64,000 bases of DNA from assembly GCA_963771275.1 (NCBI GenBank), contig CAVYSW010000003.1, forward strand, positions 257,037 to 321,036, in the 5' to 3' direction. Shown here in pieces: positions 28,473 to 57,512 of this stretch. The notes beneath the pieces were generated by a model, which was given only the letters and a program-made list of their open reading frames with translations, made no database searches and was not told the origin of the DNA. Source of the stretch: an uncultured Gemmatimonadales bacterium (lineage in GTDB: Bacteria > Gemmatimonadota > Gemmatimonadetes > Gemmatimonadales > GWC2-71-9). The position numbers and the translations under genes are program-made. How positions within the stretch are numbered: the stretch's first letter is position 1; every line of letters starts with the position of its first letter.

Positions 28473-28512
28473 GCGTTCCGCCGTGAGGGCTCGCTCCGCC
28501 CCGCGGCGCGGG

Positions 28513-31317: not shown

Positions 31318-31402
31318 CCGCCGCCCCCTGCCTTCAGGCGCCTCACGACCACCCGACCCCCTTTTCGCTCCGTCAACTTACGGACGCCAGGTCCAGTGAT
31401 TA

Positions 31403-31449: not shown

Positions 31450-31552
31450 CCCGTCCCCGAGCCCCATCAATGTCATACTCAATGCGCAGGATACCAATGA
31501 CTTGTGAGCTTTCCGGGTCCGGCTTCCAGGGCCCGAAGGAGTGTTCTTCAAG

Positions 31553-33852: not shown

Positions 33853-33870
33853 GCAGAACGTTTCCGGAGG

Positions 33871-34431
33871 TTGATCATGGAGCACATGTCCACGCCAGCC
33901 GGCAGCAACGGGCGCGGGCGGGTCCTCGCCATCATCCTGAGCGCGGTCGCCCTCATCCTGCTGGTTTTCGTCACGCAATCCCTCGTGCGGCTGGATCGTG
34001 ACGTCGCCGGTCTGCGCGCCGAGCTCGCGACCAAGCAGGACCTCGCGAATCTCGCCACCCACCTCGGGCCGCCGGATCCGGCGATGGCGGCGCTGCAGGG
34101 GACCTGCACGGATTGCCACACGGCGGAGACCTTTCAGGCCGCCCACGGGGTGACCGAGAGCATCCCCAATCTGGTGCAGCGGATGAGCGAGTTGTCGGGC
34201 GCGCACATCAGCAGCACCGAGGTCCCCAGGGTGGAGGCCGCGCTCACGTTCATGAAATGCGCCCATTGCCACACCGGCGACCGCCTCAAGGAGCTCGCGA
34301 TTCTGAGTCCGAAGGAGCGGTGGGACGTCATCATCAAGATGATGAAGGAGCCGGGAGCGCAGATCACGCAGGACGACGCGCAGCGCATCCGGGATTTCTA
34401 CGGCGAGTTCTGGGGTTGGCACACGAAGTGA
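33871..34431 (+). CDS. membrane-anchored diheme cytochrome c
   Basis: 186 aa. The N-terminal TM helix is VLAIILSAVALILLVFV and the heme motifs are CTDCH and CAHCH. Confidence 0.75.
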   Translation: MIMEHMSTPAGSNGRGRVLAIILSAVALILLVFVTQSLVRLDRDVAGLRAELATKQDLANLATHLGPPDPAMAALQGTCTDCHTAETFQAAHGVTESIPNLVQRMSELSGAHISSTEVPRVEAALTFMKCAHCHTGDRLKELAILSPKERWDVIIKMMKEPGAQITQDDAQRIRDFYGEFWGWHTK

Positions 34432-34441
34432 CCTGATGACC

Positions 34442-34475
34442 ACCGGGCGGCCGGCTGCAACGCCGACCGCCCGGT
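34442..34475. terminator. GC hairpin 1 between convergent operons
   Basis: accgggcgg (34442-50) pairs with ccgcccggt (34467-75), giving a 9-bp perfect stem. Confidence 0.5.
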
Positions 34476-34488
34476 CTCCCGTGAGGGC

Positions 34489-34514
34489 CCGGGGGCGGCA
34501 CATGCCGCCCCCGG
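34489..34514. terminator. GC hairpin 2 between convergent operons
   Basis: ccgggggcggc / gccgcccccgg form an 11-bp perfect stem with loop acat. Confidence 0.6.
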
Positions 34515-34521
34515 TGCATTC

Positions 34522-36453
34522 TCAGGCCCCGCGATCTCCGGGCGGCGGCGGCGCGCCGGTTTCCTCGTCGTACCACTTGGCGTGGTGCTCGCGCACCGCC
34601 CGCTTGCTGATCTTCCCGGTCAGCCAGGTCCAGCTCATCGGGTACTCCTCCGGATGGAAGATCACGAAGAAGAAGTGCCACACGATGATGGCGAGCGTCG
34701 CGAGCCACGCTTCGTAGTAGTGAATCGTCTGCGCCGCCGGGATCAGGAACGAGGGGAGGAACCTGGCCGCTACCGTCGGGAACCAGAGCACCAGCCCCGT
34801 CACGATCATGATGATCGTGCCCCAGATGAGCGCCCAGTACTCGGCCTTCTGCGAGTAGTCGTAGCGCCCGAACTGCGCTTTCTCCGTGCTGCGCCACGTG
34901 TAGAACCGCAGGTTCAGGACCAGGTCCTTGAGATCGCCCCACGTGGGCAGGATCGCACGGAACTCCTTCTTGCCGCGCCGCGTGAAGAAGACGTAGTACG
35001 CGTGGCTCAGCCCAACCAGGATCAGGATGACCGCAGCAACTCGGTGCACGTTGAGCCGGACCGGCTCGGTCAGTCCCACGGAAGCCAGCCAACGCACCCA
35101 CCAGGCGTCCGGGAAGCGCAGCGCGAATCCCGTGATGACCAGCAGGATGAAGGCGACGGTGAGGGCCAGGTGCTGCACGATCTGCACACGGTCGAATCGG
35201 ACCATCATCTCGGCGGTCGCTTCCTCCTTGCGTCGCTGCATCATGAAGAAGTTCATGATGACCAGGTTGTGCAGCACCATCCCGCCGAGGAGCCCGATAA
35301 TCAGCACGACATAGATGCTCCGGATCACGCGATTCACCGGGTTGGCGCTGATCGACGCCTTCTCGTGCGTGTAGCTCGCCGCGAAGCCCGCGTCCGCATT
35401 GGCGTGGCACTGGCGGCACGTGCTTACGACGTTGGCCGGACTGATGGTGGACAGGGAATCACTCGCCGGCAGGATCGAGTGGACGCCGTGGCAGCTGACG
35501 CACGTCGCCGCCCGCGCGTAGTTCCGCCTGACGGCCCAGCCGTGGTAGCTGTCCGCGTAGGAGCCGACGACGCCGCCCTGCAGGTTGTACTTCGCGACGA
35601 TCACCGGATCGTTGTGGCACTGCCCGCAGGTCTCGGTCGCGATGTGCGCCGCGAAGGTCTTGGCGTCGGGATTGCGCGGCGACAGAATGTGATGCTCGCC
35701 GTGACAGCTCGTGCACGTCGGCGCGTCGGTGACGCCGGCCTGCAGCGCCCGGCCGTGAATCGAGCCGTCGTACTGGAGCTCGATGTCGGGGTGGCACTGG
35801 CCGCACGTCGCCGCCACGTTGCGCGGGTTGATCCGCGACGTCGGATCCGCCGCGCCGAGGATGTCGTGGACGCCGTGGCAGTCCGCGCAGGAGGCCGCCG
35901 ACGCGACGCCGCGCCCCGTGCCCTGCCCGTGCACCGATTGGGCATAGTCCGTGAACGACTGCGGCAGCTTCACGATCTGGTCCGTGAGCAGGCCTGCCGT
36001 GCCGTGACACGTGGCACAGGTCCCCGGCAGGCGGACTTTGTGCGTCGGTGACCGCGGGTCGCTGCTGGCCAGCACGCCGTGGGCACCGTGACAGCTCACG
36101 CAGGTCGGCGCACGGGGGTTGCCGCGCGCCAGCGCGTAGCCGTGCAGGCTCTTGGCATACTTCGCCCCGACGTCCGCGTGGCAGCCGCTGCAGGCCAGCG
36201 GCTTCGCGTCCGGGGGGTGCGGGAAGGTCGTCATCGCCTGATGGCACATGCTGCACCGGACCCCGGCCGCCCCATGCACCGAGCCGTCGAGGCTGGCCTG
36301 CGCCACGACGAGGAGCGCGGAGTCCGGCTTCCCCTTGAAGAACCCCGGCTCCCCGTGACACATGAGGCAGTTGTCCTTCTCCTGGGCGGCTGCCACGCCC
36401 GCAACGATCAGCAGCGCCGTCGCGATCGGCAGCGCCCGCAGTCTGCTCCGCAT
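34522..36453 (-). CDS. 11-heme cytochrome c fused to a cytochrome b-type membrane domain (CbcL-like, second copy)
   Basis: From ATG 36453 (GGAGGAG upstream) the product is 643 aa with 11 CxxCH motifs. The membrane domain (IVQHLALTVAFILLVITGFALRF..) is colinear with the C-terminus of 28513-31317. Confidence 0.85.
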   Translation of the reverse strand: MRSRLRALPIATALLIVAGVAAAQEKDNCLMCHGEPGFFKGKPDSALLVVAQASLDGSVHGAAGVRCSMCHQAMTTFPHPPDAKPLACSGCHADVGAKYAKSLHGYALARGNPRAPTCVSCHGAHGVLASSDPRSPTHKVRLPGTCATCHGTAGLLTDQIVKLPQSFTDYAQSVHGQGTGRGVASAASCADCHGVHDILGAADPTSRINPRNVAATCGQCHPDIELQYDGSIHGRALQAGVTDAPTCTSCHGEHHILSPRNPDAKTFAAHIATETCGQCHNDPVIVAKYNLQGGVVGSYADSYHGWAVRRNYARAATCVSCHGVHSILPASDSLSTISPANVVSTCRQCHANADAGFAASYTHEKASISANPVNRVIRSIYVVLIIGLLGGMVLHNLVIMNFFMMQRRKEEATAEMMVRFDRVQIVQHLALTVAFILLVITGFALRFPDAWWVRWLASVGLTEPVRLNVHRVAAVILILVGLSHAYYVFFTRRGKKEFRAILPTWGDLKDLVLNLRFYTWRSTEKAQFGRYDYSQKAEYWALIWGTIIMIVTGLVLWFPTVAARFLPSFLIPAAQTIHYYEAWLATLAIIVWHFFFVIFHPEEYPMSWTWLTGKISKRAVREHHAKWYDEETGAPPPPGDRGA

Positions 36454-36548
36454 GACTCCTCCACCTTCGCGATTCCGCGGGGAGCGTGTTCGGCACCGGG
36501 CCCGGCCCGCGACGCCGCCGGGCCGGCCACTCCGGGTGCTCCCCCGAC

Positions 36549-38570
36549 CTACCCTCCCGCGCCGCTGAGCGGCGTCATCTGGTGGCACTGGTCGCACGCC
36601 ACCGGCGCGTTGTGCTGCACGCGATCCGTGTGGCACACCGTGCAGATCTGGCGCGACCACTCGGTGAGGCCGGCGACCTTGTCGCCATGGCAGCCCGTAC
36701 AGGGACGGTGGGCGATGGCCGCCTGCATGTGCTTGGCCTTGACCCCCTGGTCCGCGCGGTGGCACGCGAGGCAGGTGGCCGCCGGCAGGTGGTGCGCGCC
36801 GTGACAGTTGTCGCAGTTGAGATCCGCCGCGCGCATCGCGGGCGCCTGGTGACACACGGTGCAGGCGAACCCGATCGCCACGTGCGCCGGGTGCGGAAAG
36901 TCGCCCGCCGGCCGCGGGATCACGCCGGCCGGCACCGCGTTGGACCCGGTGTGGCAGTGCAGGCAGGTCGCCGGCTCCGCGGCGCGGTGATGACAGCCCT
37001 GGCAGTCCGCGCTGGAGCGCAGCGTGATCTTGCCGTGGTCGTCGAGCGGCGTGTGACAGGCGGTGCACGGGAGGCCGGCGCCCAGGTGCGGCTCGTGCGC
37101 GAAGCGCGCGCCCTGAAAGACGCCCGCCTGACGCTCGACGGCGAGGTGACACTGGAGGCAGGCGCTGCGGTCGAGGGCGGGACCGAGATCCACGCGCCCG
37201 ACGTCGAACGGGAGTCCGCCCGCCGCCACCGCCCGGCGGGTCAGGTCCACCGCGGCGTGCAGCAGCCGATCGGCGTACCCCACGTTGTGCGCGCCGCGGC
37301 CGACGCGCACGAGCTCGACGTTCTCCCGCGCGAGCCCCAGCAGGCTGTCCGCCGCCCTGCGGCCCGCCGCCGTGCCCGCGGCGCGCACCGCTTCGGCGCC
37401 GCGCACAACCCGCTCGACCCGCGCGAGGCGCCGCGTCATTTCCTCCTGCCAGCTGGGCAGGATGTCCGCGTAGCGCGTCCCGTGGCAGGCCATGCAGGAC
37501 GCCGCTCCCGCGACCTGCACGTTCTCGTGTCCTCGCGTCCGCCGGTTCAGCTCGTGGCAACTCTTGCACGAGACCTGCGCGCGGAACATCGCGCTGGGCA
37601 GGGACTCCGCCCCGTGCCCGCCGACGCCCGCGAGCAGCCGCTGCTGCGCCGTGTGCACGCCCTGATGGCACGATGCACAGTCAAGGGACTCGGTGCCCGT
37701 CGCCATCCCGGGCGGCATGACGACGCGATGCTCGATGGGGTCGTGGCACTGCGTGCACTCGACCTTGTGCTCCGTGATGTGCTTGCGGTGCAGCAGCGAC
37801 GTATTGCCGAACTCCTGCAGCCGCGCCGGCTCGTTGTGGCAGTTGAAGCAGCGCGACTGGTCCACGCCGCCCGTGCCCTGCACCACCTGGCTGTGGCAGG
37901 AGAGACAGGAGACCAGGTCCCGCACGAACTGCGGGTGGTCGATCACCACGCCGCCCGCTTGCTCCAGCCGCGGCGGGGCGGGATGGCACCCGATGCAGCC
38001 CGCCACCGGCTCGGCGGTCCGCCGCTCCTTGAAGTGGCAGAGGAAGCAGGTCTCCTCGGTGACCGCGACGTGGGCGCCCTGCACGATCTGCGAATGGCAG
38101 CTGGTGCATCGCAGCTGCTTGCCGCGCCGCAACTCGCCCAGGTGGTCGGCGTGACTGAACCGGACCCCCTTGAAATCGACCTCCGACGACAGCTTCGCCT
38201 CGACGTGACAGCCCGAGCGCAGACACGCGGCGTCGTCGATCTCGGCCCAGGGCTTCTTCATGCCGTACTGCCTGGTGATGTACTTCACGACCTGGTTGGC
38301 CGCCTGGAACTTGCCCATCGCCTCCGCCTTGATGCCCGGCGCATAGTGGCAGAGGATGCACTTCACGTCCTTGTGGCTGGACGTCTTCCAGGACTCGTAG
38401 TACGGCACCATGTTGTGGCAGTTCTTGCAGAAGCTTGGCTGGCCGCTGTACTCGACGAACCCCACCGTGCCGGCCGTCAGCAGGATCACGCCCGCGATGG
38501 TCAGCTGCACGAGCAGCCGCAGCCACCGCCGCCGTCGCCGGGGCGCGGGCACCGGCGTCCCGCTCGTCAT
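36549..38570 (-). CDS. NapC/NirT/NrfH-like membrane-anchored multiheme cytochrome, 21 CxxCH plus 1 CxxxxCH
   Basis: From ATG 38570 (ATGA overlap) the product is 673 aa. An N-terminal TM helix is followed by FCKNCHNMVPYYESWKTSSHKDVKCILCH, typical of the NapC/NirT family. Confidence 0.85.
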   Translation of the reverse strand: MTSGTPVPAPRRRRRWLRLLVQLTIAGVILLTAGTVGFVEYSGQPSFCKNCHNMVPYYESWKTSSHKDVKCILCHYAPGIKAEAMGKFQAANQVVKYITRQYGMKKPWAEIDDAACLRSGCHVEAKLSSEVDFKGVRFSHADHLGELRRGKQLRCTSCHSQIVQGAHVAVTEETCFLCHFKERRTAEPVAGCIGCHPAPPRLEQAGGVVIDHPQFVRDLVSCLSCHSQVVQGTGGVDQSRCFNCHNEPARLQEFGNTSLLHRKHITEHKVECTQCHDPIEHRVVMPPGMATGTESLDCASCHQGVHTAQQRLLAGVGGHGAESLPSAMFRAQVSCKSCHELNRRTRGHENVQVAGAASCMACHGTRYADILPSWQEEMTRRLARVERVVRGAEAVRAAGTAAGRRAADSLLGLARENVELVRVGRGAHNVGYADRLLHAAVDLTRRAVAAGGLPFDVGRVDLGPALDRSACLQCHLAVERQAGVFQGARFAHEPHLGAGLPCTACHTPLDDHGKITLRSSADCQGCHHRAAEPATCLHCHTGSNAVPAGVIPRPAGDFPHPAHVAIGFACTVCHQAPAMRAADLNCDNCHGAHHLPAATCLACHRADQGVKAKHMQAAIAHRPCTGCHGDKVAGLTEWSRQICTVCHTDRVQHNAPVACDQCHQMTPLSGAGG

Positions 38571-39808
38571 CCGCGTGCCCCGTGGTCCCGGCGGCGATCG
38601 GCGATCCGGATCCAGGCGAGCGCCACCAGCGCGAGCGCAAGGAACCACACCGGCACGAGCAGCAGCTTGTGCTCCCACTCGTTCTCGCCGGCCGCCGCGG
38701 CCGCTTCGTCGATCGTACGGGTGGCGGAGGCGACGCGCAGCTCGAGATCCTCCAGCGTCGCGAGATCGAGATCGTGCTGCACCAGCACGACCTGGCGATA
38801 CCAAGTGCGGGCGTCCTCATAGCGGAGCCGGCTGTCGGTCACATCCCGGCCTTTGTGGATCAGCACGTCGATGGCGCGCTGCGCCTCGAGCAGGTCATTC
38901 GCCGCGCGCGCGATCCGCGCCTCGAGCTCCACTCCCAGGGCCGCCGGCGCGCTCCCCGCCGGATGGCACTTGAGGCAGGTCTCGGCGATCGAGTCCTGCG
39001 GCACGCGCTCGGTGCCGTGGTTGCTGTGGCAGCCGACGCACCCGGCGAGCCGGCCTTGCTTGGCCGGCGCGCCGTGCGGCCCGTCGAAGAACGCCTGGCG
39101 CACGAGCGTGTGGCAGCGCCCGCACACATCGGCGATCTGGGTGACGCCCGGCGGCAGCGCCGAATGCGAGCCGTGGCAGCCGACGCAGGTGGGGGCGGCG
39201 AAGTTCTCGTCCTGAAACACCGCGACGCCGTGCGCGCTCGAGACATACTGCGTGAACTGATCCGTCGGCAGCCCGTACTTGCCCATCAGCTTCGCGTCCG
39301 CGTGGCAGCGCGCGCACAGCACCGGGATGTTCGCCGGGTAGGAGTTGCTGCGCGCGTCCGTCGCCCGGCGGATCAGGTGCGATTCGTGACAGTCGGTGCA
39401 GGTCGGCGCATCGGGATCACCCCGCTCGAGCAGCTGCCCGTGGCGACTGGCCCGCAGGCCGGCCAGCTGATCGTACGGCAGGCCGAACTGCCGCATCTTG
39501 TTCGGATCGGCGTGGCAGGAAGCGCACAACGTCGCGATCTGCAGTTTGCTGGGCCGCCCGAGGAAGTGCCCCGCGTGTGCGCCGGGCAGCTCCTGCGCGG
39601 CCGGATTGCCGCCGTGACAGTTGTGGCACTGGATGCCCCGCTCGGCATGGACCCCGGACAGGAAGGCGCGGCGGTGCTCGGCGTGGCACACCACGCAGGA
39701 ATACGAGCTGTCGATCGCAAGCGACGGGGCCTGTGCCGCCAGCGCCCGGAAGGGCCCCACCAGCAGGCCGACCCCCAGCGCCGCACGCCCGACGAGCCGT
39801 GGCGTCAT
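38567..39808 (-). CDS. nonaheme cytochrome c with C-terminal TM anchor (paralog of 18569-19849)
   Basis: From ATG 39808 (ATGA overlap) the product is 413 aa with 9 CxxCH motifs. It is colinear with the other nonaheme (CHNCHGGNP vs CADCHGGDP; APTCVGCHGSHSALPPGV vs APTCNDCHGNHGAAPPGV). The C-terminal TM helix is LLLVPVWFLALALVALAWI. Confidence 0.85.
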   Translation of the reverse strand: MTPRLVGRAALGVGLLVGPFRALAAQAPSLAIDSSYSCVVCHAEHRRAFLSGVHAERGIQCHNCHGGNPAAQELPGAHAGHFLGRPSKLQIATLCASCHADPNKMRQFGLPYDQLAGLRASRHGQLLERGDPDAPTCTDCHESHLIRRATDARSNSYPANIPVLCARCHADAKLMGKYGLPTDQFTQYVSSAHGVAVFQDENFAAPTCVGCHGSHSALPPGVTQIADVCGRCHTLVRQAFFDGPHGAPAKQGRLAGCVGCHSNHGTERVPQDSIAETCLKCHPAGSAPAALGVELEARIARAANDLLEAQRAIDVLIHKGRDVTDSRLRYEDARTWYRQVVLVQHDLDLATLEDLELRVASATRTIDEAAAAAGENEWEHKLLLVPVWFLALALVALAWIRIADRRRDHGARG

Positions 39809-41058
39809 CGGGACCTCCCCGCGGTGGTCGAATCGGTGGAGTCCGGGTGCAGCGGCGCGATCCCTCCCGCGTCCGCGCCGAACGGGACGGCCCGGCCCGG
39901 GGTCTCCATCGGCGTCGCATGGGGCACCGGTCCCTGCGACTGCAGCGTGCGGCCGACGCCCCACGTCAGCAGCGTCACGGCGAAGAACGCAATGCCGGCC
40001 GCGAGCACCAGGGGGCGCTCGCGCAGCCGCCGCTCAGGACCGCGGTCGAACAGCGGCAGCACCGCGAGCACGGCGCCGAGCAGGACGAACAGCGCCACGC
40101 CCCACCCACCCAGGAAGTGCCCGAGCGTGCGTCCGATGTCGACAATCACCCAGGTGGAGATCAGGTCGCGGGGCAACGCCCCAGGGTCCGCGGGCGGCCC
40201 GACGGGACGGGTGAACCAGGTCGCGAGCGTGATGACCACGGCGAGTGTGACCGCGGCGACCATCAGCGACCGCATCAGGTGCACCGGATAGAAGCGCACG
40301 CCGGGCTCGGACGTCTCGCGTCCGGGCGGCGGGGTGATGCCGTGCCGCCGGATCAGGGTGAAGTGGAGCCCCAGCAGGACGAAGAGCAGCCAGGGCAGCA
40401 GCACCACGTGGAGCGCGAACTGCCGGCTCAGCGTGGAGCCGGACACGAGCGAGTCGCCGCGCAGCAGCTCCGTGGCGAGACCGCCCACCACCGGGATCGC
40501 GGACAGCAGCTCGAGGCCTTCCGAGAAGGTCCAGTACGCCCACTGATCCCAGGGCAGCAGGTAGCCCGACGCCCCAAACGCCAGGACGACGCCGAACAGC
40601 CCGACCCCGATCAGCCAGTTGGTCTCGCGCGGCGGCTTGTACGCCCCGTCGAAGAACACGCGGGCGAGGTGCGCCAGCAGCAGGACGACGAGGAGGCTGG
40701 CGCACCAGACGTGCAGTCCCCGAATCAGCCAGCCGAACGGCGCCTGCGACTGGATGTACTGGACGCTGGCGTAGGCCTCCTGGGCCGAGGGGCGGTAGTA
40801 GAACACCAGCAGGACCCCGGTCGCCACCTGCACCATCAGCAGCAGGTAGGCGATGCTCCCGAACGCGTGCCGCCAGGTGATGTGGGCCGGGAGGCGGTAG
40901 TTGAGCGCCTTGCGGAGCGACACGTCGATGCGCGAGCGGCCGTCGATCGGCCCGTAGAGCAGTCCGAGAAACCGGGCGATGCCGAGCAGGCTGGGGTCGG
41001 TCGACTGCCGGAGGTCCTCCCAGAACTGCGCGAGCCAGCCGCGGATCCGTCCGGTCAT
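39805..41058 (-). CDS. cytochrome b homolog lacking the PEWY Qo motif
   Basis: From ATG 41058 (GAAGGAG upstream) the product is 417 aa. The His pairs HVWCASLLVVLLLAH and HVVLLPWLLFVLLGLH are retained. The position aligned to RPEWYF of copy 1 reads ISTWVI. Confidence 0.85.
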   Translation of the reverse strand: MTGRIRGWLAQFWEDLRQSTDPSLLGIARFLGLLYGPIDGRSRIDVSLRKALNYRLPAHITWRHAFGSIAYLLLMVQVATGVLLVFYYRPSAQEAYASVQYIQSQAPFGWLIRGLHVWCASLLVVLLLAHLARVFFDGAYKPPRETNWLIGVGLFGVVLAFGASGYLLPWDQWAYWTFSEGLELLSAIPVVGGLATELLRGDSLVSGSTLSRQFALHVVLLPWLLFVLLGLHFTLIRRHGITPPPGRETSEPGVRFYPVHLMRSLMVAAVTLAVVITLATWFTRPVGPPADPGALPRDLISTWVIVDIGRTLGHFLGGWGVALFVLLGAVLAVLPLFDRGPERRLRERPLVLAAGIAFFAVTLLTWGVGRTLQSQGPVPHATPMETPGRAVPFGADAGGIAPLHPDSTDSTTAGRSR

Positions 41059-41510
41059 GGCGCCTCCTTCACGTAGACCACGTCTCCGTGCACAAAGACA
41101 CCGAACCGGCGGAGCGGCACCGTCGTGAGGCCGGTCACCACGTTGCCGTGCAGGTCGTACACGAGGTGGCTGCACGGGGAGACGATCTGCAGCCCCTGCT
41201 CGTCCCATTTCAGCAGGCAGCCATCGCTGGGGGCGGTCCCCTCCACCGCGTAAAAGGTGGCCGCGGACCGCCGCACGACCAGCACCACGCGCGCACCCCA
41301 GTTCACCACCCGGCCCGTGCCGACGGGGAAATCGGCGACCCGCGCCACGCGGATCGTGGGCTGGAGCTCCGGGATGTGGAGGCGCTGCGCGGGGAGCAGA
41401 TACAGGGCGATCACGAGCAGCACCGCGAACGCCGTGACCGCGAGGACGCCGGCGAGCAGCAGCCGGTTCAGCTCGGAGCCGGATTCCCGTACGTGCACCG
41501 TGTCAGGCAT
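41055..41510 (-). CDS. Rieske-fold protein lacking 2Fe-2S ligands
   Basis: From ATG 41510 the product is 151 aa, the same length as the true Rieske, with an N-terminal TM helix. Box I reads APSDGC instead of CTHLGC, and box II reads SPCSHL instead of CACHNG. Confidence 0.75.
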   Translation of the reverse strand: MPDTVHVRESGSELNRLLLAGVLAVTAFAVLLVIALYLLPAQRLHIPELQPTIRVARVADFPVGTGRVVNWGARVVLVVRRSAATFYAVEGTAPSDGCLLKWDEQGLQIVSPCSHLVYDLHGNVVTGLTTVPLRRFGVFVHGDVVYVKEAP

Positions 41511-41719
41511 GCTCGCCCTCCTCCCCCGCCGCGTCTCCATCGCGGCCCAGCCATGCCAGAAGCCCCACCACGGGCGGCTGCGCGGCCACGACTGCTCCAA
41601 ACGTGGCAGCCGGCTCCACCACCCGAAGGAGGGGAGCCGGCCGCCGCTTCAATCCACTGTCGTTCCGGGAGCCGGCGGGCCCGGGACTACCCGGACCCGC
41701 CGGGCTCCACTACCAACGA

Positions 41720-43372
41720 TCACCGCAGCTTCCTGAGGCCCGCGGGCGCCGTGAGCTGCTGGCTCAGGGTCACGGGCGGAGCCGGGACGTTGTAGTACGT
41801 CCTCAGATAGTCGATCGACGCAAGCAGCAGCGCCTCGAGCAGGAATGGGTTGTGCGCCCCCTGCCCGCTGGAGATATGGCCCGTGTTCGAGCCGCCGCTC
41901 GGCGACGTGCAGGTCTGCGACGCGCAGCTGTACTGCTCGGGGACCTTGAAGCTCAGCCAGGCGGGGCGCTCGCTGGTGGCCGCCAGCTGGGCGTTCCAGA
42001 TGGCGCCCTCGGCCGGTGTCAGCACGGAGTCATACAGGTTTATCTGCCGGCGCTCGTTGTTCGCAACGGCCTGCGCCAGGATCTCCGGCAGAACCCCGCG
42101 ATCCGTGGACTCCATGAGCGAATCGTTGTCCACGTCGGTCCACAGGGCGTCGGTCAGGGAGTTCATCCGGGCCCGCACCACCTGGAACGCCGTCCGCGCC
42201 GCGTCGGCGCTGCCGTGGCAGCCCGACACCGCACAGGAGCGGAAGTCGCGCTGGGAGTCCGGGCAGTCCGCGCCGGGGATCGGCTCGCCCGTGCTCTGAT
42301 TGATGCAGGGAACCGCCTGGAACGTGTGCCCCACGTAGTTCTTGACGAACGTGCTGTCCGCGGCGTTGATCGCGAACCCGGCGACGTGGCACGCGGCACA
42401 CTGCCGCGGATTCGCGGTGGTGTGCGAGCCCACGACCCGGTCGGTGTACGGCCAGTTGGGCGGCAGCCAGCCCGCTTCCTCGTCCATCACGATGGACCCC
42501 TGCGCGCCATGCGGGCCGCGACGGGTGATGCCGCTGGCGCCGGGCTCACCTTCACGCGAGTGGCAGCGCGCGCACAGCTGCTCCAGGCTCGACTCGTCGA
42601 GCGGGCGGCGGAGCTGACCCTCGTTGGTGGCGTCGTGCGGATCATGGCAGACGGCGCAGACGATCGGCTGGTAGTCGCCCGCGATGTCCTTCTCCAGGAA
42701 GACGGTGGGATCGCCGCCGGTCTGGCCCGAGGGACGTGGATCGAGCCCGCTCATCGCCACGCGAATCGCCGCGCGACCCTCGTGGCAGTTCATGCACGGA
42801 TCGCGCGAGCCTTCGGCGAGGTAGGCGTCTCCGCCGTAGCCGTGCCTGGATTGGCTCCACTCTTCGATAAACGGATGGTGCACGTCGGTGTGACACTCGC
42901 CGCAGCCGTTGGCGGAGTCGATCCCGACCGCGATCGCCGCGAGCGGTGCCACGACGCTGCCGCCGAACACGGACTCGACGTGGGCCAGGCCGGGGCCGTG
43001 GCAGCTCTCGCACTGCACGTCGAAGTAGGCGGTGTCCGCCACCTTGTTGTGCCCCGCCGCCGAGTCGACCGCGTTGCCGAGGTCACTCACCGTGTGGCAG
43101 CCCTCGCACATCGCGTCGGCGTGACCGGAGGCTTGGAGGTCCGCCCAGGCGCTGGCGTGCTTGGTCTGCACCCACGATGCCTGCATGTCGGCGTGGCAGT
43201 TGCCGCACGTGGTCTGCTTGTCGGCAGGTGTGTAGTAGCCGAGGTACCCCGCGGCCGCGTCCGGCGGGGGGTTGAATACGGGCGTTTCGACGTACTGGAT
43301 CTCGTGCTCCGTACAGGCGCCGAGCAGTACGACCAGCGCCGCCGCGCTCGTCCAACGAATCAGGCTCGTCAC
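41720..43372 (-). CDS. multiheme cytochrome c lipoprotein (8 CxxCH plus 1 CxxxxCH)
   Basis: GTG 43372 with AAGGAG upstream. The lipobox is VLLGAC. The product is 550 aa with a heme-free helical C-terminal region. The family (Otr/HAO-like vs other) cannot be resolved by eye. Confidence 0.8.
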   Translation of the reverse strand: MTSLIRWTSAAALVVLLGACTEHEIQYVETPVFNPPPDAAAGYLGYYTPADKQTTCGNCHADMQASWVQTKHASAWADLQASGHADAMCEGCHTVSDLGNAVDSAAGHNKVADTAYFDVQCESCHGPGLAHVESVFGGSVVAPLAAIAVGIDSANGCGECHTDVHHPFIEEWSQSRHGYGGDAYLAEGSRDPCMNCHEGRAAIRVAMSGLDPRPSGQTGGDPTVFLEKDIAGDYQPIVCAVCHDPHDATNEGQLRRPLDESSLEQLCARCHSREGEPGASGITRRGPHGAQGSIVMDEEAGWLPPNWPYTDRVVGSHTTANPRQCAACHVAGFAINAADSTFVKNYVGHTFQAVPCINQSTGEPIPGADCPDSQRDFRSCAVSGCHGSADAARTAFQVVRARMNSLTDALWTDVDNDSLMESTDRGVLPEILAQAVANNERRQINLYDSVLTPAEGAIWNAQLAATSERPAWLSFKVPEQYSCASQTCTSPSGGSNTGHISSGQGAHNPFLLEALLLASIDYLRTYYNVPAPPVTLSQQLTAPAGLRKLR

Positions 43373-46216: not shown

Positions 46217-46690
46217 TCAGTGGCGGGAGAAGACCGTCGTCTGTCCCCGACGGTCAAAGGTGAGCACGTCATATGGGTCCTTCCGCCCGCCCTGCTCCAT
46301 GCCCGGCGAGCCGATCGGCATGCCCGGAACCGCGAGCCCCACCACCGCGGGGTGCTCCGTGAGCAGCCGGTTGATGTCCTCCGCCGGCACGTGTCCCTCG
46401 ACGACGTAGCCGCCCACCAGGGCCGTGTGGCACGCTTCGAGCTGGCGTGGGACGCCAGCGCCGACCTTCATCTCGACGAGCGTCGCCTCATCCACTTCCC
46501 GCGTCACGACCGTGAATCCCTTGGCTTGCAGGTGAACCACCCACTGGGAGCAGCAGCCTCACGTGGGGGTCTTGTAGACCGTCACCGTGGGGGGAGCGTG
46601 CCCGGTCCCGGCGGCCACCCGCGTGGCCGCGACCCCCGCCAGCAGCAGCACACCACCCACCGCCGCACCCCAACCCACAACTCGCCGCAT
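46217..46690 (-). CDS. DUF411/CopG-family periplasmic metal-binding protein with an in-frame TGA (selenocysteine candidate or pseudogene)
   Basis: ATG 46690 follows GGAGG. The signal peptide is MRRVVGWGAAVGGVLLLAGVAA. The sequence ..TVTVYKTPT-TGA-GCCSQWVVHLQAKGF.. continues into track ORF 46217-46540. The TGA at 46559-46561 sits where the family CxCC motif has its first Cys. Confidence 0.6.
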
Positions 46691-46864
46691 GATGCCTCCA
46701 TGAACTGCTCACCACACTACCGACTCGCGCAGGATGCGCGGGCCGGTCGCCCTTCCCTCGGAACCGTCCGGTGGCACGTGGGATCGTGCGAAAGTTGCCA
46801 CGGCGCGGCCCGCCGCGCCACCCTCGCCCCTCCACCGGGCCGCGCCGGGGATTAAATTCCGGCC

Positions 46865-51715: not shown

Positions 51716-52021
51716 ATGGTCAGACGCCCGTTGGTTCGGTCGGTGACTCCGGAGGTGCTCAACCGCGCCGCGGAGATCATTCGGATGCTGGGGCACTCCG
51801 AGCGTCTCAAGATCGTGGAAGTGCTCGAGGCGGGCGAAGCCACCGTGTCGGCGATTCAGGACAAGGTGAGTCTTCCCCAGGCGATTGTGTCGCAGCACCT
51901 GGCGAAGATGCGCGGCGCCGACATCGTGGCGGCGCGCCGAGACGGCGTGCACGTCTTCTATCACCTGATCGAGCCCAAGGTCCAGCACATCCTGCAGTGC
52001 ATCCGCACGTGTGACATGTGA
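51716..52021 (+). CDS. ArsR/SmtB-family metalloregulator
   Basis: 101 aa: AEIIRMLGHSERLKIVEVLEAGEATVSAIQDKVSLPQAIVSQHLAKMRGADIV..DGVHVFY. Confidence 0.85.
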   Translation: MVRRPLVRSVTPEVLNRAAEIIRMLGHSERLKIVEVLEAGEATVSAIQDKVSLPQAIVSQHLAKMRGADIVAARRDGVHVFYHLIEPKVQHILQCIRTCDM

Positions 52022-52063
52022 TGCCCCTGCTCGCCCCCGGGACCCGGATGATCACTTAAATAT

Positions 52064-53371
52064 ATGATAATAGCTATTTTATTATCTCTAAGCACCCAGG
52101 CACCGTCCGACACGCTGGTTCTGTCGCTCGATGCGGCGGTCGCGCGCGCGCTCGCCCACAATCCCACCCTGCGGGCCGAGCGCGCCGACGCCCGCAGCGT
52201 CGGGCAGCTGCCCGCCACGGCCTCCCGCGCATTTCTCCCCAGCATCCGGGCGGACGTGATGGGCATGCGGACGACCGATCCCGTGGCCGTGTTCGGCCTC
52301 AAGCTCCGGCAGGCTGGGTTCCAGGCCTCGGACCTGGCGCTCGACGTGCTGAACGACCCGGCGGCGTACGGCGGCTTCATGAGCGCGGCCACCGCGGAGG
52401 TGCCGCTGGTGGCCCCGGAGGGGTGGTTCGGCTACGCGGCGGCGCGGCGGGCGGCCGCGGCGCGCGAAGCCGGAGCCGAGCGGGCGGCGGGTGCGACGGC
52501 ATTCTTCACCGCGCAGGCCTACCTCGACGCGCAGCTCGCGCAGCGCCGGGTGGACGCCCTCGACACCGCGCTCGCCGCGGCGCGGGCACACGGTACCCAG
52601 GCGGAGCAGCTGCATGCGCAGGGCCTGGTGACGGGGCTCGACGCCCGCCTCGCGCGCCTCGGTGCCGCGGCGCTCGAGGTCCGCCGGGTCGCGGCCGCCG
52701 CCGAGGCGGCCAACGCCACCTCCCGCCTCCGCGCCTTGCTGGCGGTGCCCGAGAACACCGACCTGCGGCTCACGGATTCGCTCACCGTCGCCCGGGCGAC
52801 CGTATGCCCCGGCGAGGCATGCCGGCTGGAGCAGCGCGGCGACGTGCGGGCGCTGTCGGCCGGCGCGGAGGCCGCGGCGCTCGGCGCGAAGAGCGCGTGG
52901 GCGGCACAGCTGCCGCAGCTCGGCGCGTTCGGGACGATCGCCTATCACGGGCACGACGCGCCGTGGGGCGGCGGCAGCGGCGACTGGACCGTCGGGATCG
53001 CGCTGCGCTGGAACGTGTTCCCCGCCCTGGGCGGGCTCGCCGCCGTGCGGCGGGCGAGCGCCGACCGGGACGCCGCGCGCGCGCGGTACGAGGCGGCGCG
53101 CCGCCAGGCCGAAGTTCAGGTCCTGGCCGCCGAGCGGATGCTCGCCGCCGCACGCGAGGGCGCCGCGATCGCGGCGCGGGCCGAGGCCGAAGCCCGGGTG
53201 GCGCTCGGCCAGGCGCAGGTTCGCTATCGCACCGGCGCGGCCCCTATTACCGAGCTGCTCGACGTCCAGACGGCAGCGACCGACGCCACGCTCAACCTTC
53301 TCACCGCGCGGCACGACCTGCTGCTCGCCCAGGCGGCGCTGGAGCTCGCCTACGGAGTGCATGACCGATGA
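52064..53371 (+). CDS. TolC-family outer membrane efflux protein
   Basis: 435 aa with Ala/Leu/Arg-rich coiled repeats (LSLDAAVARALAHNPTLRAERA.., ..LLDVQTAATDATLNLLTARHDLLLAQAALELA). The N-terminal signal peptide is unusually short. Confidence 0.75.
   Translation: MIIAILLSLSTQAPSDTLVLSLDAAVARALAHNPTLRAERADARSVGQLPATASRAFLPSIRADVMGMRTTDPVAVFGLKLRQAGFQASDLALDVLNDPAAYGGFMSAATAEVPLVAPEGWFGYAAARRAAAAREAGAERAAGATAFFTAQAYLDAQLAQRRVDALDTALAAARAHGTQAEQLHAQGLVTGLDARLARLGAAALEVRRVAAAAEAANATSRLRALLAVPENTDLRLTDSLTVARATVCPGEACRLEQRGDVRALSAGAEAAALGAKSAWAAQLPQLGAFGTIAYHGHDAPWGGGSGDWTVGIALRWNVFPALGGLAAVRRASADRDAARARYEAARRQAEVQVLAAERMLAAAREGAAIAARAEAEARVALGQAQVRYRTGAAPITELLDVQTAATDATLNLLTARHDLLLAQAALELAYGVHDR
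52068..52078. promoter_or_regulatory. second copy of the ATAATAGCTAT motif (candidate ArsR operator)
   Basis: The 11-mer is identical to 51694-51704 and contains the palindrome ATAGCTAT. It sits in an AT-rich island overlapping codons 2-5 of the TolC-like gene. Confidence 0.45.
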
Positions 53372-54363
53372 AACAGACCTTCTTGCTTGGCACCCTTGCG
53401 ACCGTCGTCGCCGCCTGCGGCGGGGGGCAGACGCCCGAGCCACCGGTGGCCACCCCGTCCGGGACCGGCTACCAGGTTCGCGCGGAGACGCTGGCGGTCA
53501 CGATCCCGGTCGAGGGCACCATCACGGCGCGACAGCGCGCCGAGATCTCGACCCGGCTGATGGCCCGCGTCACGGACGTTCCGGCCGATCTCGGTACCCG
53601 CGTGCGCGCGGGCGAGACGCTGATCCGCCTCGGGACCGAGGACGTCGCGGCGAACCGCGCGAAGGCGGAGGCGGCGGTTCAGGTGGCGCGGGCGGCGCGG
53701 GACGACGCGGCGCGGCAGGCAACGCGGATGGACACGCTCTACGCCCAGGATGCCGTGGCACTCGTGCAGCGTGATGGGGCCCGGCTCGGGCTCACCGCAG
53801 CGGAGTCGCAGCTCGCGATGGCCGAAGCCACGCTGCGGGAGGTGGAGAGCACCGCGGGCTACGCGCGGATCGTGGCGCCATTCGACGGCGTGGTGGTGGC
53901 CCGCTCGGTGGATCCGGGCGATCTCGCGGCCCCGGGTCAGCCCCTGCTCGTGCTGGAAAGCAGCGGACCACGCGATGCCGTGATCGCCGTCCCGGTGGAC
54001 GTCGCGACCGGGCTGCGCGTGGGCGGGACGATGACCGTGCAGGCAGCAGACGGGCGCACGACCGACGGACGCATCCGCGTGGTGGCGGGCGGCGCCGACC
54101 CGACGACCCGCACCGTCGAGGCGCGGGTGGCCGTTCCGGCCGACTGGCCGACGGGGGTGTCGGTGACGGCCCTGGTGCCGGCGGGGACGCATCGGGCGGT
54201 CGCGATCCCGGCGACGGCGGTGATCCGGCGGGGACAACTCACCGGGGTGATGGTGCTCACTCCGGAGGGGGCGGCGCTGCGCTGGGTGCGGCTCGGACGC
54301 ACGGTCGGCGAGCGGGTAGAGGTGCTGAGCGGGCTCGAGCCCGGGGAGCGGATCGCGCCATGA
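53368..54363 (+). CDS. RND efflux periplasmic adaptor (MFP/HlyD family) lipoprotein
   Basis: The lipobox is VVAACGGG, followed by ..GTITARQRAEISTRLMARVTDV..GYARIVAPFDGVVVARSVDPGDL.. Confidence 0.85.
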   Translation: MKQTFLLGTLATVVAACGGGQTPEPPVATPSGTGYQVRAETLAVTIPVEGTITARQRAEISTRLMARVTDVPADLGTRVRAGETLIRLGTEDVAANRAKAEAAVQVARAARDDAARQATRMDTLYAQDAVALVQRDGARLGLTAAESQLAMAEATLREVESTAGYARIVAPFDGVVVARSVDPGDLAAPGQPLLVLESSGPRDAVIAVPVDVATGLRVGGTMTVQAADGRTTDGRIRVVAGGADPTTRTVEARVAVPADWPTGVSVTALVPAGTHRAVAIPATAVIRRGQLTGVMVLTPEGAALRWVRLGRTVGERVEVLSGLEPGERIAP

Positions 54364-57300
54364 AAACCGGGCCGTCGGGCGCCATCGCCCAGCGCTTCCT
54401 CAACTCGAAGCTCACGCCGCTCTTGATCGGCGCGTCGCTCGTGGCGGGGGTGGGCGGGCTGCTCACGACCCCGCGCGAGGAGGAGCCGCAGATTCGGGTG
54501 CCGATGATCGACGTCGCGGTCGGTCTGCCCGGGGCGAGCCCGCACGAGGTCGAGCGGCGGGTGGTCGAGCCGCTGGAGCGCGCGATCTGGGAGATCCCCG
54601 GCGTCGAGTACGTCTACAGCGTGGCGCAGAACGACGGTGCCCTGATCACGGCGCGGTACAAGGTCGGCACCGAGCCGGAGCTGGCGCTGACCCGGCTGTA
54701 CGGCAAGCTGCTGGCCAACGCGGACAAGGCGCCGCCCGGCGCCACGCCGCCGCTGGTGGCGCTGCACGGCATCAACGAGGTGCCGATCCTCACGCTCACG
54801 CTGTCGGGCGGCGGGGACGTGGGCGACGGCTTTCTGCTGCACCAGCAGGCCGCCGAGTTGGCGGCGCAGCTCAAGCGGATCCCCGACGTCGCGGAAACGT
54901 GGGTCGTGGGCGGCGCCCCCCGCGAGGTCCGCGCGACGCTGGACCCGCAGGCGCTGGCGTCCCGCGGCCTCTCGGCGGCGGCCGTGCTGCACGCGGTCGG
55001 CATCGCCAATGCGGAGCTGCCGGCCGGTGACCTGCTGAGCGGCAACCGGGCCGTGCCGGTCCGGGTTGGCGCGCTGTTGCGCGACGTCGACCAGGTGCGG
55101 GACGTCGTGATCGCCGTACAGGGCGACCGGGCGATCCGCCTGCGCGACGTGGCGCAAGTCACCGACGGGCCGGCCGAGCCCGATCAGTACGTCGCCTTCC
55201 TGCCCGCGGGGAGCGCCACGTTCGAGCCCGCGGTGACGATCGCGATCGCCAAGCGGGAGGGGACCAACGCCGCGACGATCGCCGAGCACGTGATGCAGCG
55301 GGTGGACGCGCTGACCGGCTCGGTGCTGAGCAGCGACGTGCGCGTCACGATCACCCGGAACTACGGCGAGACCGCCACCGAGAAGTCGCGCGAGCTGCTG
55401 CTCCACATCCTGATCGCGACGCTCGGCGTCGCGGTGCTGGTGTGGTTGACGCTGGGCTGGCGGGAGGCCGTCGTCGTGCTAGTGGCCGTGCCGGTGACCC
55501 TCGCCCTCACCCTGCTGGTCTACCGGCTGTACGGCTACACGCTGAACCGGATCACGCTGTTCGCGCTGGTCTTCGCCATCGGTATCCTGGTGGACGACGC
55601 CATCGTCGTGGTCGAGAACATCGCGCGGCACCTCCGGTTGGGGCTGCGCCACGCCGACGAGGCCGCGGTCATGGCCGTGGACGAGGTGGGGAACCCGACG
55701 ATCCTCGCCACGCTCACGGTGATCGCGGCGATTCTGCCGATGGCGTTCGTCTCCGGCCTGATGGGGCCGTACATGCGGCCGATCCCGGTAGGCGCGTCGG
55801 TGGCGATGCTGTTTTCGCTCGGCGTGGCGTTCATCGTGACGCCGTACCTCTCGCTCCGGCTGCTCAAGGGGCACTCGGTACCGCCGGCCGGCGGCGAGGT
55901 CCAGGAGCCGCTGCCCGACGGCCGGCTGGCGCGCTGGTACCGCGGCCTGCTGGAGGGACTGATCGGGAACCCGACGCGGCGCGCGCTGGCGTACGGCGCG
56001 ATGGTGGCGCTGCTGGGGCTGTCCGCGCTGCTGGTGCCGCTCAAGCTCGTGACCGTGAAGATGCTGCCGTTCGACAACAAGAGCGAATTCCAGCTGATCG
56101 TGGACATGCCGGAGGGCACCGCGCTCGAGCGCACGGCCGAGGTAGCGCAGGCGCTGGCGCTCGCCGTCGGCCGCGATCCGGCGGTCCACGACATCGAAAC
56201 CTACGCCGGGGTGGGCGCGCCGTTCAACTTCAACGGCCTGGTGCGCCACTACTTCCTGCGCCGCGGCCCGACGGTGGCCGACGTGCAGGTCAATCTCCTG
56301 CCGAAGCACGAGCGCTCCGATCAGAGCCACGCGATCGCGCTGCGGGTCCGGCCGGTGGTGGACTCGATCGCCCGCGCGTACGGCGCCTCCGTGAAGGTGG
56401 CGGAGATTCCGCCCGGCCCCCCCGTGCTCGCGACGCTCACCGCGGAGGTCTACGGGCCGAGCTACGCGGCGCAGATCGCCACGGCCGAGCAGGTCAAGGC
56501 CACATTCGAGCGCACCGACGGCGTGGTGGACGTGGACTGGTCGGTGACGGCACCGCACGCGGAGGTGCGCGCGGCCGTGAGTCAGGCGGAGGCGCTGCGC
56601 GCCGGGACCAATACCCGGGACGTGGCGCAGACGGTGGCGGCGGCGATGGGCGGCGCGGGCGCCGGACTGTTGCACGACGACCGGGCGGCCGAGCCGGTGC
56701 CGATCCGGGTCGCCCTGCCCGACTCCGCCGCCTCCACGATCGGCGACCTGGCCGCTTTGCCGATCGCGACGCCGCACGGCGCCCGGCGACTCGGCACGCT
56801 CGCCGCGCTCGACAGCGCGCCCGCGGCGACCCCGATCTTCCGCAAGAACCTCCGCCCCGTGGTGTACGTCACCGGCGACGTGGCGGGCCGGCTCGAGAGC
56901 CCGGCGTACGCCATGCTCGCGATGCGGCAGGACCTCGCGCGGATCGGCGACGGCCTCGAGATCCACTACGCCGGCTCGCCGACGCTCACCGAGAAGCCGT
57001 TTCTCGTGTGGGACGGCGAGTGGCAGATCACCGTCGACGTGTTCCGCGATCTCGGCATCGCCTTCGCCGCCGTGCTCGTGCTGATCTACGTGCTGGTCGT
57101 GGCGTGGTTCCAGTCGTTCCTGGTGCCGCTGGTGATCATGGCGCCGATTCCGCTCACGCTGATCGGGATCCTGCCGGCCCACGCGGCGAGCGGCGCGTTC
57201 TTCACGGCGACCTCGATGATCGGCATGATCGCGCTGGCCGGCATCATCGTGCGGAACTCGATCCTGCTGGTCGATTTCATCGAGCTGGGCCGCGAGCGCG

Positions 57301-57512
57301 GGCGGAGCGTGCCGGAGGCGGTGATCGCCTCGGGGCTGATTCGCGCCCGGCCCATCATCCTCACGGCCGCCGCGGTCGTGATCGGCGGCGCGGTGATGGT
57401 GAGCGACCCGATCTTCCAGGGCCTCGGCATCGCGCTGATCAGCGGCGCCGTCGTGTCGACCGCTCTCACGCTCGTCGCCATTCCTCTGCTCTACTACGAG
57501 ATGCGCAAATGA
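54360..57512 (+). CDS. RND efflux transporter permease (AcrB/HAE-like)
   Basis: 1050 aa with a 12-TM two-lobe architecture: ..ALVFAIGILVDDAIVVVENI.. and ..GMIALAGIIVRNSILLVDF.. Confidence 0.9.
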   Translation: MKTGPSGAIAQRFLNSKLTPLLIGASLVAGVGGLLTTPREEEPQIRVPMIDVAVGLPGASPHEVERRVVEPLERAIWEIPGVEYVYSVAQNDGALITARYKVGTEPELALTRLYGKLLANADKAPPGATPPLVALHGINEVPILTLTLSGGGDVGDGFLLHQQAAELAAQLKRIPDVAETWVVGGAPREVRATLDPQALASRGLSAAAVLHAVGIANAELPAGDLLSGNRAVPVRVGALLRDVDQVRDVVIAVQGDRAIRLRDVAQVTDGPAEPDQYVAFLPAGSATFEPAVTIAIAKREGTNAATIAEHVMQRVDALTGSVLSSDVRVTITRNYGETATEKSRELLLHILIATLGVAVLVWLTLGWREAVVVLVAVPVTLALTLLVYRLYGYTLNRITLFALVFAIGILVDDAIVVVENIARHLRLGLRHADEAAVMAVDEVGNPTILATLTVIAAILPMAFVSGLMGPYMRPIPVGASVAMLFSLGVAFIVTPYLSLRLLKGHSVPPAGGEVQEPLPDGRLARWYRGLLEGLIGNPTRRALAYGAMVALLGLSALLVPLKLVTVKMLPFDNKSEFQLIVDMPEGTALERTAEVAQALALAVGRDPAVHDIETYAGVGAPFNFNGLVRHYFLRRGPTVADVQVNLLPKHERSDQSHAIALRVRPVVDSIARAYGASVKVAEIPPGPPVLATLTAEVYGPSYAAQIATAEQVKATFERTDGVVDVDWSVTAPHAEVRAAVSQAEALRAGTNTRDVAQTVAAAMGGAGAGLLHDDRAAEPVPIRVALPDSAASTIGDLAALPIATPHGARRLGTLAALDSAPAATPIFRKNLRPVVYVTGDVAGRLESPAYAMLAMRQDLARIGDGLEIHYAGSPTLTEKPFLVWDGEWQITVDVFRDLGIAFAAVLVLIYVLVVAWFQSFLVPLVIMAPIPLTLIGILPAHAASGAFFTATSMIGMIALAGIIVRNSILLVDFIELGRERGRSVPEAVIASGLIRARPIILTAAAVVIGGAVMVSDPIFQGLGIALISGAVVSTALTLVAIPLLYYEMRK

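Follow-up and report, generated by a model that had tools for sequence, protein, structure and literature searches.

An in-frame UGA in the copper-cluster motif of CopG/DUF411 proteins is probably a selenocysteine codon

A CopG/DUF411 gene of an uncultured Gemmatimonadales bacterium carries an in-frame UGA in place of the codon for the first cysteine of the CxCC motif, and we consider it highly probable (roughly 0.88) that this codon is decoded as selenocysteine, giving a probably exported protein with the motif U-G-C-C. The gene lies in a stretch of 64,000 nucleotides, which was analysed as a whole and is called the window below. Judged from comparative sequence data, the protein, to which we refer as Sec-CopG, appears to be a real and widespread selenoprotein form of CopG. 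TGA-containing homologues are called Sec forms, and those with a cysteine codon at the same place Cys forms.

The mechanically derived open reading frame of this region (46217-46540) opens at an internal GTG. The first-pass annotation had taken this start to be artificial, and had read upstream in the same frame a complete gene with an ATG at 46690, a GGAGG four nucleotides before it, a signal peptide and the sequence TVTVYKTPT-TGA-GCCSQWVVHLQ. Translation agreed with this description: the GTG is the Val codon in W-V-V-H-L, and the minus-strand frame, which starts with the ATG at 46690-46688 and has its own terminator TGA at 46219-46217, comprises 157 codons including one in-frame UGA (Table 1). 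GGAG(G) with the same spacing is kept in the orthologues L001, L002, L004 and L005. The N-terminus of the product, MRRVVGWGAAVGGVLLLAGVAATRVAA, resembles a signal peptide, and residues 1-30 have low pLDDT in the AlphaFold2 model. Around the TGA the product reads PPTVTVYKTPT-TGA-GCCSQWVVHLQAKGF. The Sec-containing peptide to be expected from it is TPT-U-GCCSQWVVHLQAK, where U is the predicted residue.

Table 1. Positions of the putative Sec-CopG gene and of its features in the window
Feature	Position	Strand	Basis
Ribosome-binding site GGAGG	46695..46699	-	4-nt spacer (CATC) before ATG
Complete putative Sec-CopG (DUF411) gene	46217..46690	-	translation, Pfam, PDB match, AlphaFold2 model
Putative signal peptide, about 27 residues (MRR, hydrophobic core, RVAA)	46610..46690	-	sequence; approximate boundary, putative cleavage site
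In-frame TGA, proposed selenocysteine codon, residue 44	46559..46561	-	aligned to first Cys of CGCC
Predicted U-G-C-C motif (CopG CxCC copper-cluster motif)	46550..46561	-	alignments and model
SECIS-like hairpin, 7-bp stem GUGGGUG/CACCUGC, loop GUU (46537-46535)	46528..46544	-	folds, bSECIS model criteria
Internal GTG, false start of the 107-aa product	46538..46540	-	ORF list; public metagenome annotations
Pfam DUF411 core, residues 84-131 (CHT...EGHVP...GMPxGSPGME)	46298..46441	-	Pfam; invariant columns

With Cys written at the TGA, the read-through product matched Pfam DUF411 (PF04214) with 91.6 bits (cut-off 27, E 2.4e-26) and CopG of P. aeruginosa (PDB 6WIS) with an E value of 7e-33, the TGA being opposite the first Cys of CGCC in 6WIS. 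There were 7752 homologues of the window protein at E <= 1e-3, and in 21/21 of the closest full-length ones the position of the TGA is occupied by Cys. The alignment with 6WIS and the cysteines of the homologues thus place the conserved C-x-C-C of the DUF411/CopG family exactly where it had been proposed, and, together with the TGA in the orthologues, they support the proposed Sec/Cys pair at its first position. The CxCC of the family is present as U-G-C-C, which is complete only if the UGA is decoded as Sec or Cys.

The AlphaFold2 model of the read-through product, built with 21 homologues, had a pLDDT of 87. Its top PDB matches in Foldseek were the CopG structures 6WIS/6WJE (E 5e-15, TM 0.91, rmsd 1.5 A); thioredoxins and glutaredoxins ranked next. 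The model has the thioredoxin-like fold with a C-terminal extension seen in 6WIS. A weak match to the Pfam Glutaredoxin family covers residues 36-70. Residue 44 falls after strand 35-40 and before helix 46-56, in the active-site position of the thioredoxin fold, thus the predicted U-G-C-C would also be a UxxC motif.

CopG is a periplasmic protein, which binds a tetranuclear copper cluster via CxCC and two Met and contributes to copper resistance under anaerobic conditions; the oxidation of Cu(I) to Cu(II) and the transfer of copper to partners were proposed as its role (PMC7558416). For the cluster and the oxidoreductase activity, the P. aeruginosa protein is the only known case. The window protein and P. 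aeruginosa CopG (43-46% identity over 125 aligned columns) share the thioredoxin-like domain with its extension, x-G-C-C in the same place and the CHT, EGHVP and GMPxGSPGME segments; with its signal-peptide-like N-terminus the window protein would be exported, as CopG is. The window gene differs in that it encodes the first motif Cys as UGA and in that it stands outside any cop/cus/cue cluster. Because no invariant residue of the DUF411 family is lost from the Sec form in the alignment, the most economical reading is that Sec-CopG would do the same job as CopG, with the selenolate acting as cluster ligand and/or as redox nucleophile. By analogy with CopG, we infer that the protein binds copper and has a redox role.

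To see how far the TGA form extends, we searched for the DNA pattern of Y-K-x-P-T-TGA-G-C-C-x-x-W in genomes representing one GTDB species each, and obtained at least 119 loci on at least 118 contigs. Among the matches listed, 119/119 were DUF411 genes with U-G-C-C and the conserved C-terminal domain; a few of the listed loci run off their ends, and one (L107) has a frameshifted tail. Of the 108 complete genes among these matches, 105 have a hydrophobic 12-mer in the 70 residues that precede the UGA. According to the labels of the genome records, the listed loci belong to Acidobacteriota (at least 49 loci, 30 of them labelled Vicinamibacter-), Gemmatimonadota (at least 34), Chloroflexota (Caldilineales and Anaerolineales, at least 14), Rokubacteria/Methylomirabilota (at least six), Delta/Myxococcota (at least four), Verrucomicrobiota and Betaproteobacteria (at least two each), and Gammaproteobacteria, Binatia, Tectomicrobia and Nitrospinaceae (at least one each), and at least four loci had odd or unclassified labels. 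Complete Vicinamibacterales chromosomes, such as OY759970.1, OY760734.1 and OZ253576.1, are among the carriers of the Sec form. The window protein was closest, among the matches listed, to those of three Gemmatimonadales MAGs (L083, L098 and L124).

On a neighbour-joining tree of 117 Sec and 106 Cys domains, which for a domain of 120 residues is only indicative, the nearest neighbour was another Sec form for 114 of the 117 Sec forms, and about 15 switches between Sec and Cys were needed. From these sequences the family appears to have switched between the two states repeatedly.

The region downstream of the UGA was studied for a bacterial SECIS element. An inner 7-bp stem with a GUU loop about 21 nt after the UGA, as described by the first-pass annotation, is indeed present at 46544-46528, with its apical loop starting 21 nt after the UGA. 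An outer 4-bp stem (nt +1 to +4 with +33 to +36) had also been suggested, and this part was not supported: it is not conserved, its pairs being formed in 31-82% of the Sec forms, no more often than in the Cys forms. The published bSECIS model asks for a loop of 3-9 nt, a stem of 4-16 bp, a spacing of 16-37 nt and an MFE <= -7.5 kcal/mol, and has a G in the first two loop positions followed by G/U, which is the SelB-binding signature (PMC13188914). The window hairpin fits the loop, stem, G-U and spacing criteria of this model, so it is within the bacterial SECIS range as had been proposed; the energy threshold is reached by the 48 nt after the UGA (-11.5 kcal/mol) and missed by the core helix of the hairpin (-6.5 kcal/mol). 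An Rfam search of the window matched no family. The element resembles the E. coli fdhF-type SECIS and the bSECISearch model in being a stem-loop just 3' of the UGA, and differs from them in the weaker core helix and in the existence of several registers in the family.

Taken alone, the window hairpin proves little: the MFE of the 48-nt region is no better than chance (z = +1.29 relative to dinucleotide shuffles), the core helix falls short of the threshold, and the conserved peptide W-V-x-H-L, whose RNA is self-complementary by nature, dictates much of the stem. Folding of the single sequence was dropped as SECIS evidence, as the shuffled sequences fold equally well. Base-pair covariation in a fixed register was modest, and slid registers scored similarly; we ascribe this to the peptide W-V-x-H-L, which partly fixes the stem, and to the coexistence of several registers. 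At least three registers or loop types occur in the family: GUU/GGU triloops with a spacing of 21, GGUCUUG-type loops with a spacing of 17, and longer stems.

The comparison of Sec and Cys forms was more informative. We compared 125 distinct Sec-form segments with 117 distinct Cys-form genes, the latter collected from metagenomes with the same flanking pattern having TGY instead of TGA. The local MFE (nt 13-39) was -9.2 kcal/mol in the Sec forms and -4.4 kcal/mol in the Cys forms (P = 7e-23), and the difference persisted in each of three GC bins. Pair 21-31 is formed in 94% of the Sec and 58% of the Cys forms, and pair 18-34 in 62% and 30%, respectively. G followed by U/G at the start of the loop (positions 25-26) was found in 58/125 Sec forms as opposed to 2/117 Cys forms. 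At the protein level, Leu at position 10 is present in 94% of the Sec and 58% of the Cys forms, and the loop codon x8 encodes Val or Gly in 58/125 Sec forms, residues which are not among the commonest ones in the Cys set. When the bSECIS rules were applied in a simplified implementation, not with bSECISearch itself, hairpins with dG <= -5 were found in 91 of the 125 Sec forms and in four of the 117 Cys forms, and with dG <= -7.5 in 48 and one, respectively. Moreover, the hairpin region in the clade of the window keeps the rare codons GTT, CAA and GGA, which in the window account for 2.9% of Val, 6.6% of Gln and 6.8% of Gly codons. Because of this contrast between Sec and Cys forms, we regard the SECIS-like element as a predicted feature specific to the TGA forms, and the window hairpin as what looks like a typical member of its commonest class.

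The window contains no tRNA (ARAGORN) and, among its 43 genes, no SelA, SelB or SelD (Pfam), but it is a piece of a genome of at least 1.9 Mb, and the absence of sel genes from it is uninformative. A tblastn search of 247 loci and the window with E. coli SelA, SelB and SelD detected no sel genes; one weak match turned out to be LepA. In one Caldilineales MAG (L017) a tandem DsbA-like gene, whose product is predicted to be secreted, follows Sec-CopG 170 nt downstream on the same strand, with EWSDYT-TGA-PYC in its first domain and EFSDYQ-C-PFC in the second. DsbA-like UxxC proteins are a listed selenoprotein family (PMC13188914), and the presence of a gene of this known type offers indirect support, at the level of sequence, for the Sec-decoding trait of hosts with the Sec form. 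Further indirect support comes from cultured relatives of several host clades: for Caldilinea, Anaerolinea, Koribacter and Solibacter, SelA, SelB and SelD are on record (Peng 2016 Table S1), and a Methylomirabilota MAG was reported to have 63 predicted selenoprotein genes.

Scans for further read-through TGAs based on GC3 or homology were too noisy in this high-GC DNA; filtering left the DsbA-like gene of L017, and a separate motif scan added a Prx-like one (L223). In the window, neither the filtered scans nor the motif scan left any other read-through TGA. A second in-frame TGA in the window (1774-1776) was rejected as a Sec site, it marks the boundary of two tandem small genes. The neighbours of Sec-CopG in the window are genes for an enoyl-CoA hydratase (ECH) and a glycerol-kinase-like protein as well as rho, recF and gyrB, and the nearest metal-related genes, an ArsR-OEP-MFP-RND operon, are 5 kb away and not adjacent. 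No neighbour gene was conserved across the 119 loci among the matches listed, nor was there a linkage to copper resistance genes (copA, cusCBA, cueO/pcoA), and the gene neighbourhood was rejected as a functional clue. In the DUF411 family as a whole, linkage to copper genes is frequent, and not strictly defining.

In the proposed mechanism, which follows the standard bacterial pathway, a hairpin 14-31 nt downstream of the UGA (7-bp stem, GUU loop beginning with G then U) would recruit SelB-GTP-Sec-tRNA(Sec) to the ribosome standing at the UGA, Sec would be inserted, and translation would run on for 113 codons to the ordinary TGA stop. In its mature form the protein would be thioredoxin-like, with Sec as the N-cap residue of helix 1, where CxxC/UxxC motifs have their attacking Cys. 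Since the motif bridges the tetranuclear copper cluster in CopG, the selenolate could serve there as a copper ligand and/or as a redox-active nucleophile. Both Sec insertion and the dependence on SelB are what we infer for this UGA.

It is improbable, in our opinion, that the UGA is recoded to something other than Sec, either to Cys by a tRNA-Sec-like tRNA-Cys and SelB, or by near-cognate read-through aided by the hairpin. SelB-dependent recoding of UGA to Cys has been reported in a few bacteria, Cys is tolerated at this position in all homologues, and the comparative data bear on the translation of the codon and not on the residue inserted. To maintain a UGA and a hairpin merely for Cys would, however, be costly when TGC or TGT would suffice, and the motif would presumably be lost with a Trp or Gly in place of the metal-ligand Cys. 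The estimated 15 or so switches on the tree suggest that the Sec and Cys states are distinct and selectable, and the loop signature of the Sec forms, G followed by G or U, is the SelB-binding signature of the published model.

The possibility that the gene is split or truncated, and that only a 107-aa product is made from the GTG at 46540, perhaps together with a 43-aa peptide, is what the public annotations imply. Each of the five database proteins that are closest to the window protein (80-95% identity) has the truncated length of 107 aa, and gene callers gave exactly the same division into 43 and 107 aa in every public assembly examined. Contigs of these proteins are syntenic with the window (ECH, DUF411, rho, FGGY kinase, multihaem cytochromes), and syntenic orthologues could be taken from independent ENA, JGI and Logan metagenome assemblies. 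In a codon alignment of six distinct orthologues (80-95% protein identity) the TGA is invariant. Of the ten codons before it (-10 to -1) six vary synonymously and no amino acid is changed, downstream of it dozens of codons vary synonymously with few amino-acid changes, and G-C-C, whose codons separate the TGA from the supposed GTG start, does not vary. This pattern is one of purifying selection on one continuous frame across the UGA, and it rules out an error of assembly, a pseudogene in decay and a functional product of 107 aa alike.

There are further reasons why we find it very unlikely that the 107-aa protein is the functional product. It would have neither a signal peptide nor the whole CxCC, yet G-C-C is kept; purifying selection also acts on the upstream TVTVYKTPT, which stays in frame in about 125 sequences; the GTG is a conserved Val codon, which in other lineages is ATC, ATT, ATG or GCG and has no start potential there; and strand 35-40, encoded upstream of the UGA, is needed for the fold in the AlphaFold2 model.

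A pseudogene, or a TGA arising from a sequencing or assembly error for TGC/TGT, is an even more remote explanation. A lone in-frame stop in one MAG-like contig does resemble an error or a recent inactivation, and the frameshifted tail of L107 could be viewed in the same light. Against this, the same TGA occurs in ENA, JGI, Logan and NCBI assemblies and in at least 119 genome loci, there are no further lesions in the gene, substitutions are mainly synonymous, and the Sec forms share features absent from the Cys forms, which random errors could not produce. The earlier analysis had named a misread cysteine codon, or orthologues decayed on both sides of the codon, as outcomes that would speak against selenocysteine, and had suggested comparing TGA and Cys codons in orthologues; both are excluded, the former by the independent assemblies and the latter by orthologues that are intact on both sides of the TGA. 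A genome-wide reassignment of TGA in the hosts (genetic codes 4 or 25) can practically be dismissed, since TGA is the main stop codon in the window (among the 35 called genes with 200 codons or more, 23 end in TGA, and Sec-CopG ends in it too), it terminates 51/108 complete Sec-form genes among the matches listed, so that in these UGA would have two meanings within one gene, and the hosts span many phyla using the standard code.

The first-pass annotation knew of no described selenoprotein form of the DUF411/CopG family, and our searches are in line with this. In the literature searched we found no paper joining DUF411 and selenoprotein, although an earlier mention is possible, and nothing relevant on COG3019 or on CopG combined with selenocysteine. 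A May 2026 review (PMC13188914) gives 119 prokaryotic selenoprotein families with their domain identifiers, and PF04214 and a U-G-C-C motif are both missing from it; DUF411/CopG is not mentioned in the papers on deep-Sep and BSepDB, and no NCBIfam model matches the window protein. Thus Sec-CopG appears to be uncatalogued as a selenoprotein family.

In kind, Sec-CopG would be an ordinary bacterial selenoprotein, combining the thioredoxin fold and UxxC motif with a Sec/Cys pair and a SECIS element in the coding region; what makes it notable is its breadth and the Sec in a copper-cluster site. It is similar to the UxxC selenoproteins of the thioredoxin fold (Trx, Grx, DsbA-like, thiol:disulfide interchange proteins) in that Sec is the N-terminal residue of UxxC, where strand 1 ends and helix 1 begins, many homologues have Cys instead, and the bSECIS directly follows the UGA within the coding region. 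It differs from them in having a third Cys in the predicted U-G-C-C, and in that the motif is, in the homologous structure, a metal-cluster site and not a simple dithiol/disulfide. Several predicted selenoproteins likewise belong to metal-handling families: E1-E2 cation ATPases with UxxC, CopZ-family proteins with GxUC/CU, the SO_0444 Cu/Zn efflux transporter with UxC and MerT-like proteins (PMC13188914). In these, Sec replaces a metal-ligand Cys in heavy-metal homeostasis, as we propose for Sec-CopG, all of them being computational predictions (PMC13188914); Sec-CopG differs from them in fold and family.

Whether Sec-CopG is an uncatalogued family common in mainly aerobic soil and water phyla, in which a selenolate bridges a tetranuclear copper cluster, is in our view an even bet. 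By soil and water phyla we mean Gemmatimonadota, Vicinamibacterales and other Acidobacteriota, Caldilineales/Anaerolineales and Rokubacteria. As the motif cysteines of the solved CopG homologue bridge the Cu4 cluster, Sec would itself be a ligand of this cluster. If this is true, the bridging selenolate would be a natural Cu-Se protein site; to our knowledge, the Sec-metal bonds experimentally established in proteins are those with Mo/W and Ni. The repeated switching between Sec and Cys would then amount to a natural experiment on what selenium contributes to copper redox chemistry.

For genome annotation the consequence is that the present fragment calls strip the signal peptide and the metal site from the product in more than 100 species genomes, which a family-specific model would fix. 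For selenium biology, Sec-CopG would be a widespread member of the selenoproteome in soil and groundwater phyla, unlike the classic selenoprotein-rich anaerobes, and would raise the estimates of Sec use in those communities. The proposed role of CopG as a Cu(I)/Cu(II) oxidoreductase is still poorly defined. The natural Sec/Cys variants point to the first residue of the motif as chemically critical, and may provide matched pairs for comparing redox potential, copper affinity and oxygen tolerance.

The CopG gene of the window, a DUF411 gene on the minus strand, has at a distance of 5 kb a gene set running from an ArsR-family regulator to an RND pump, which apparently forms one operon and was also found in L002 and L004, the contigs syntenic with the window. 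Other features noted in the window are listed in the table. Among the genes of the respiratory cluster are those of cytochrome b, of a di-haem cytochrome c, of several multihaem c-type cytochromes of large size, and of a 4Fe-4S dicluster protein with a likely NrfD-like partner; GC3 gave no clear gene call between 18.1 and 19.8 kb or between 32.5 and 36.5 kb. In the UvrA-like protein the UvrA domains are recognisable only from near residue 370, thus the protein has a long uncharacterised N-terminal extension. Each of the small paralogues preceding PspA/IM30 has one TM segment and a coiled coil. The TGA between them was considered as a read-through site and rejected, it is an ordinary gene boundary.

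Features of the window and of locus L017
Feature	Sequence	Position	Strand	In-frame TGA
PspA/IM30, preceded by two small tandem paralogous genes	window	548-2193	-	
UvrA-like protein, 1310 residues	window	3020-6952	-	
Cytochrome c maturation genes ccmH-like, ccmF, ccmE	window	13207-16230	-	
Dense respiratory cluster	window	26047-43372, plus 16975-21261		
ArsR-family regulator, outer-membrane efflux protein, CusB/HlyD-like membrane-fusion protein, RND pump	window	51716-57512	+	
DsbA-like gene	L017	4682-6238	-	5726-5728

Some of the fetched loci with a Sec-form DUF411 gene (in-frame TGA, proposed to be read as selenocysteine, U) were unusual. In L107, from a long-read Vicinamibacterales MAG, the gene is frameshifted at its C-terminus, and an Arg/Pro-rich tail of 303 residues begins after ...RRLLTERP; most likely either the sequence contains an indel error or the gene is a true pseudogene. 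One Vicinamibacterales genome has two nearly identical Sec-form copies (L050 and L076), approximately 4.3 Mb apart on CBDBMZ010000003.1. The label of the Sec-form contig L062, 'uncultured Bifidobacteriaceae', is at odds with every other host, and is probably due to a binning or labelling error.

In-frame TGA codons were also seen in other genes on sequences that carry DUF411. On the metagenome contig L223, whose DUF411 gene is of the Cys form, a TGA interrupts the frame of a peroxiredoxin-like ORF (PKAFTGG-U-TAEC), which lies on the minus strand at roughly 1088 nt from the contig end. In L017, a Caldilineales MAG locus, the Sec-CopG gene is followed 170 nt downstream, on the same strand, by the gene of a secreted tandem DsbA-like protein. 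Its two Thioredoxin_4/DSBA domains have the motifs U-P-Y-C (domain 1, the U coming from the in-frame TGA) and C-P-F-C (domain 2), and the gene pair may constitute a two-selenoprotein operon.
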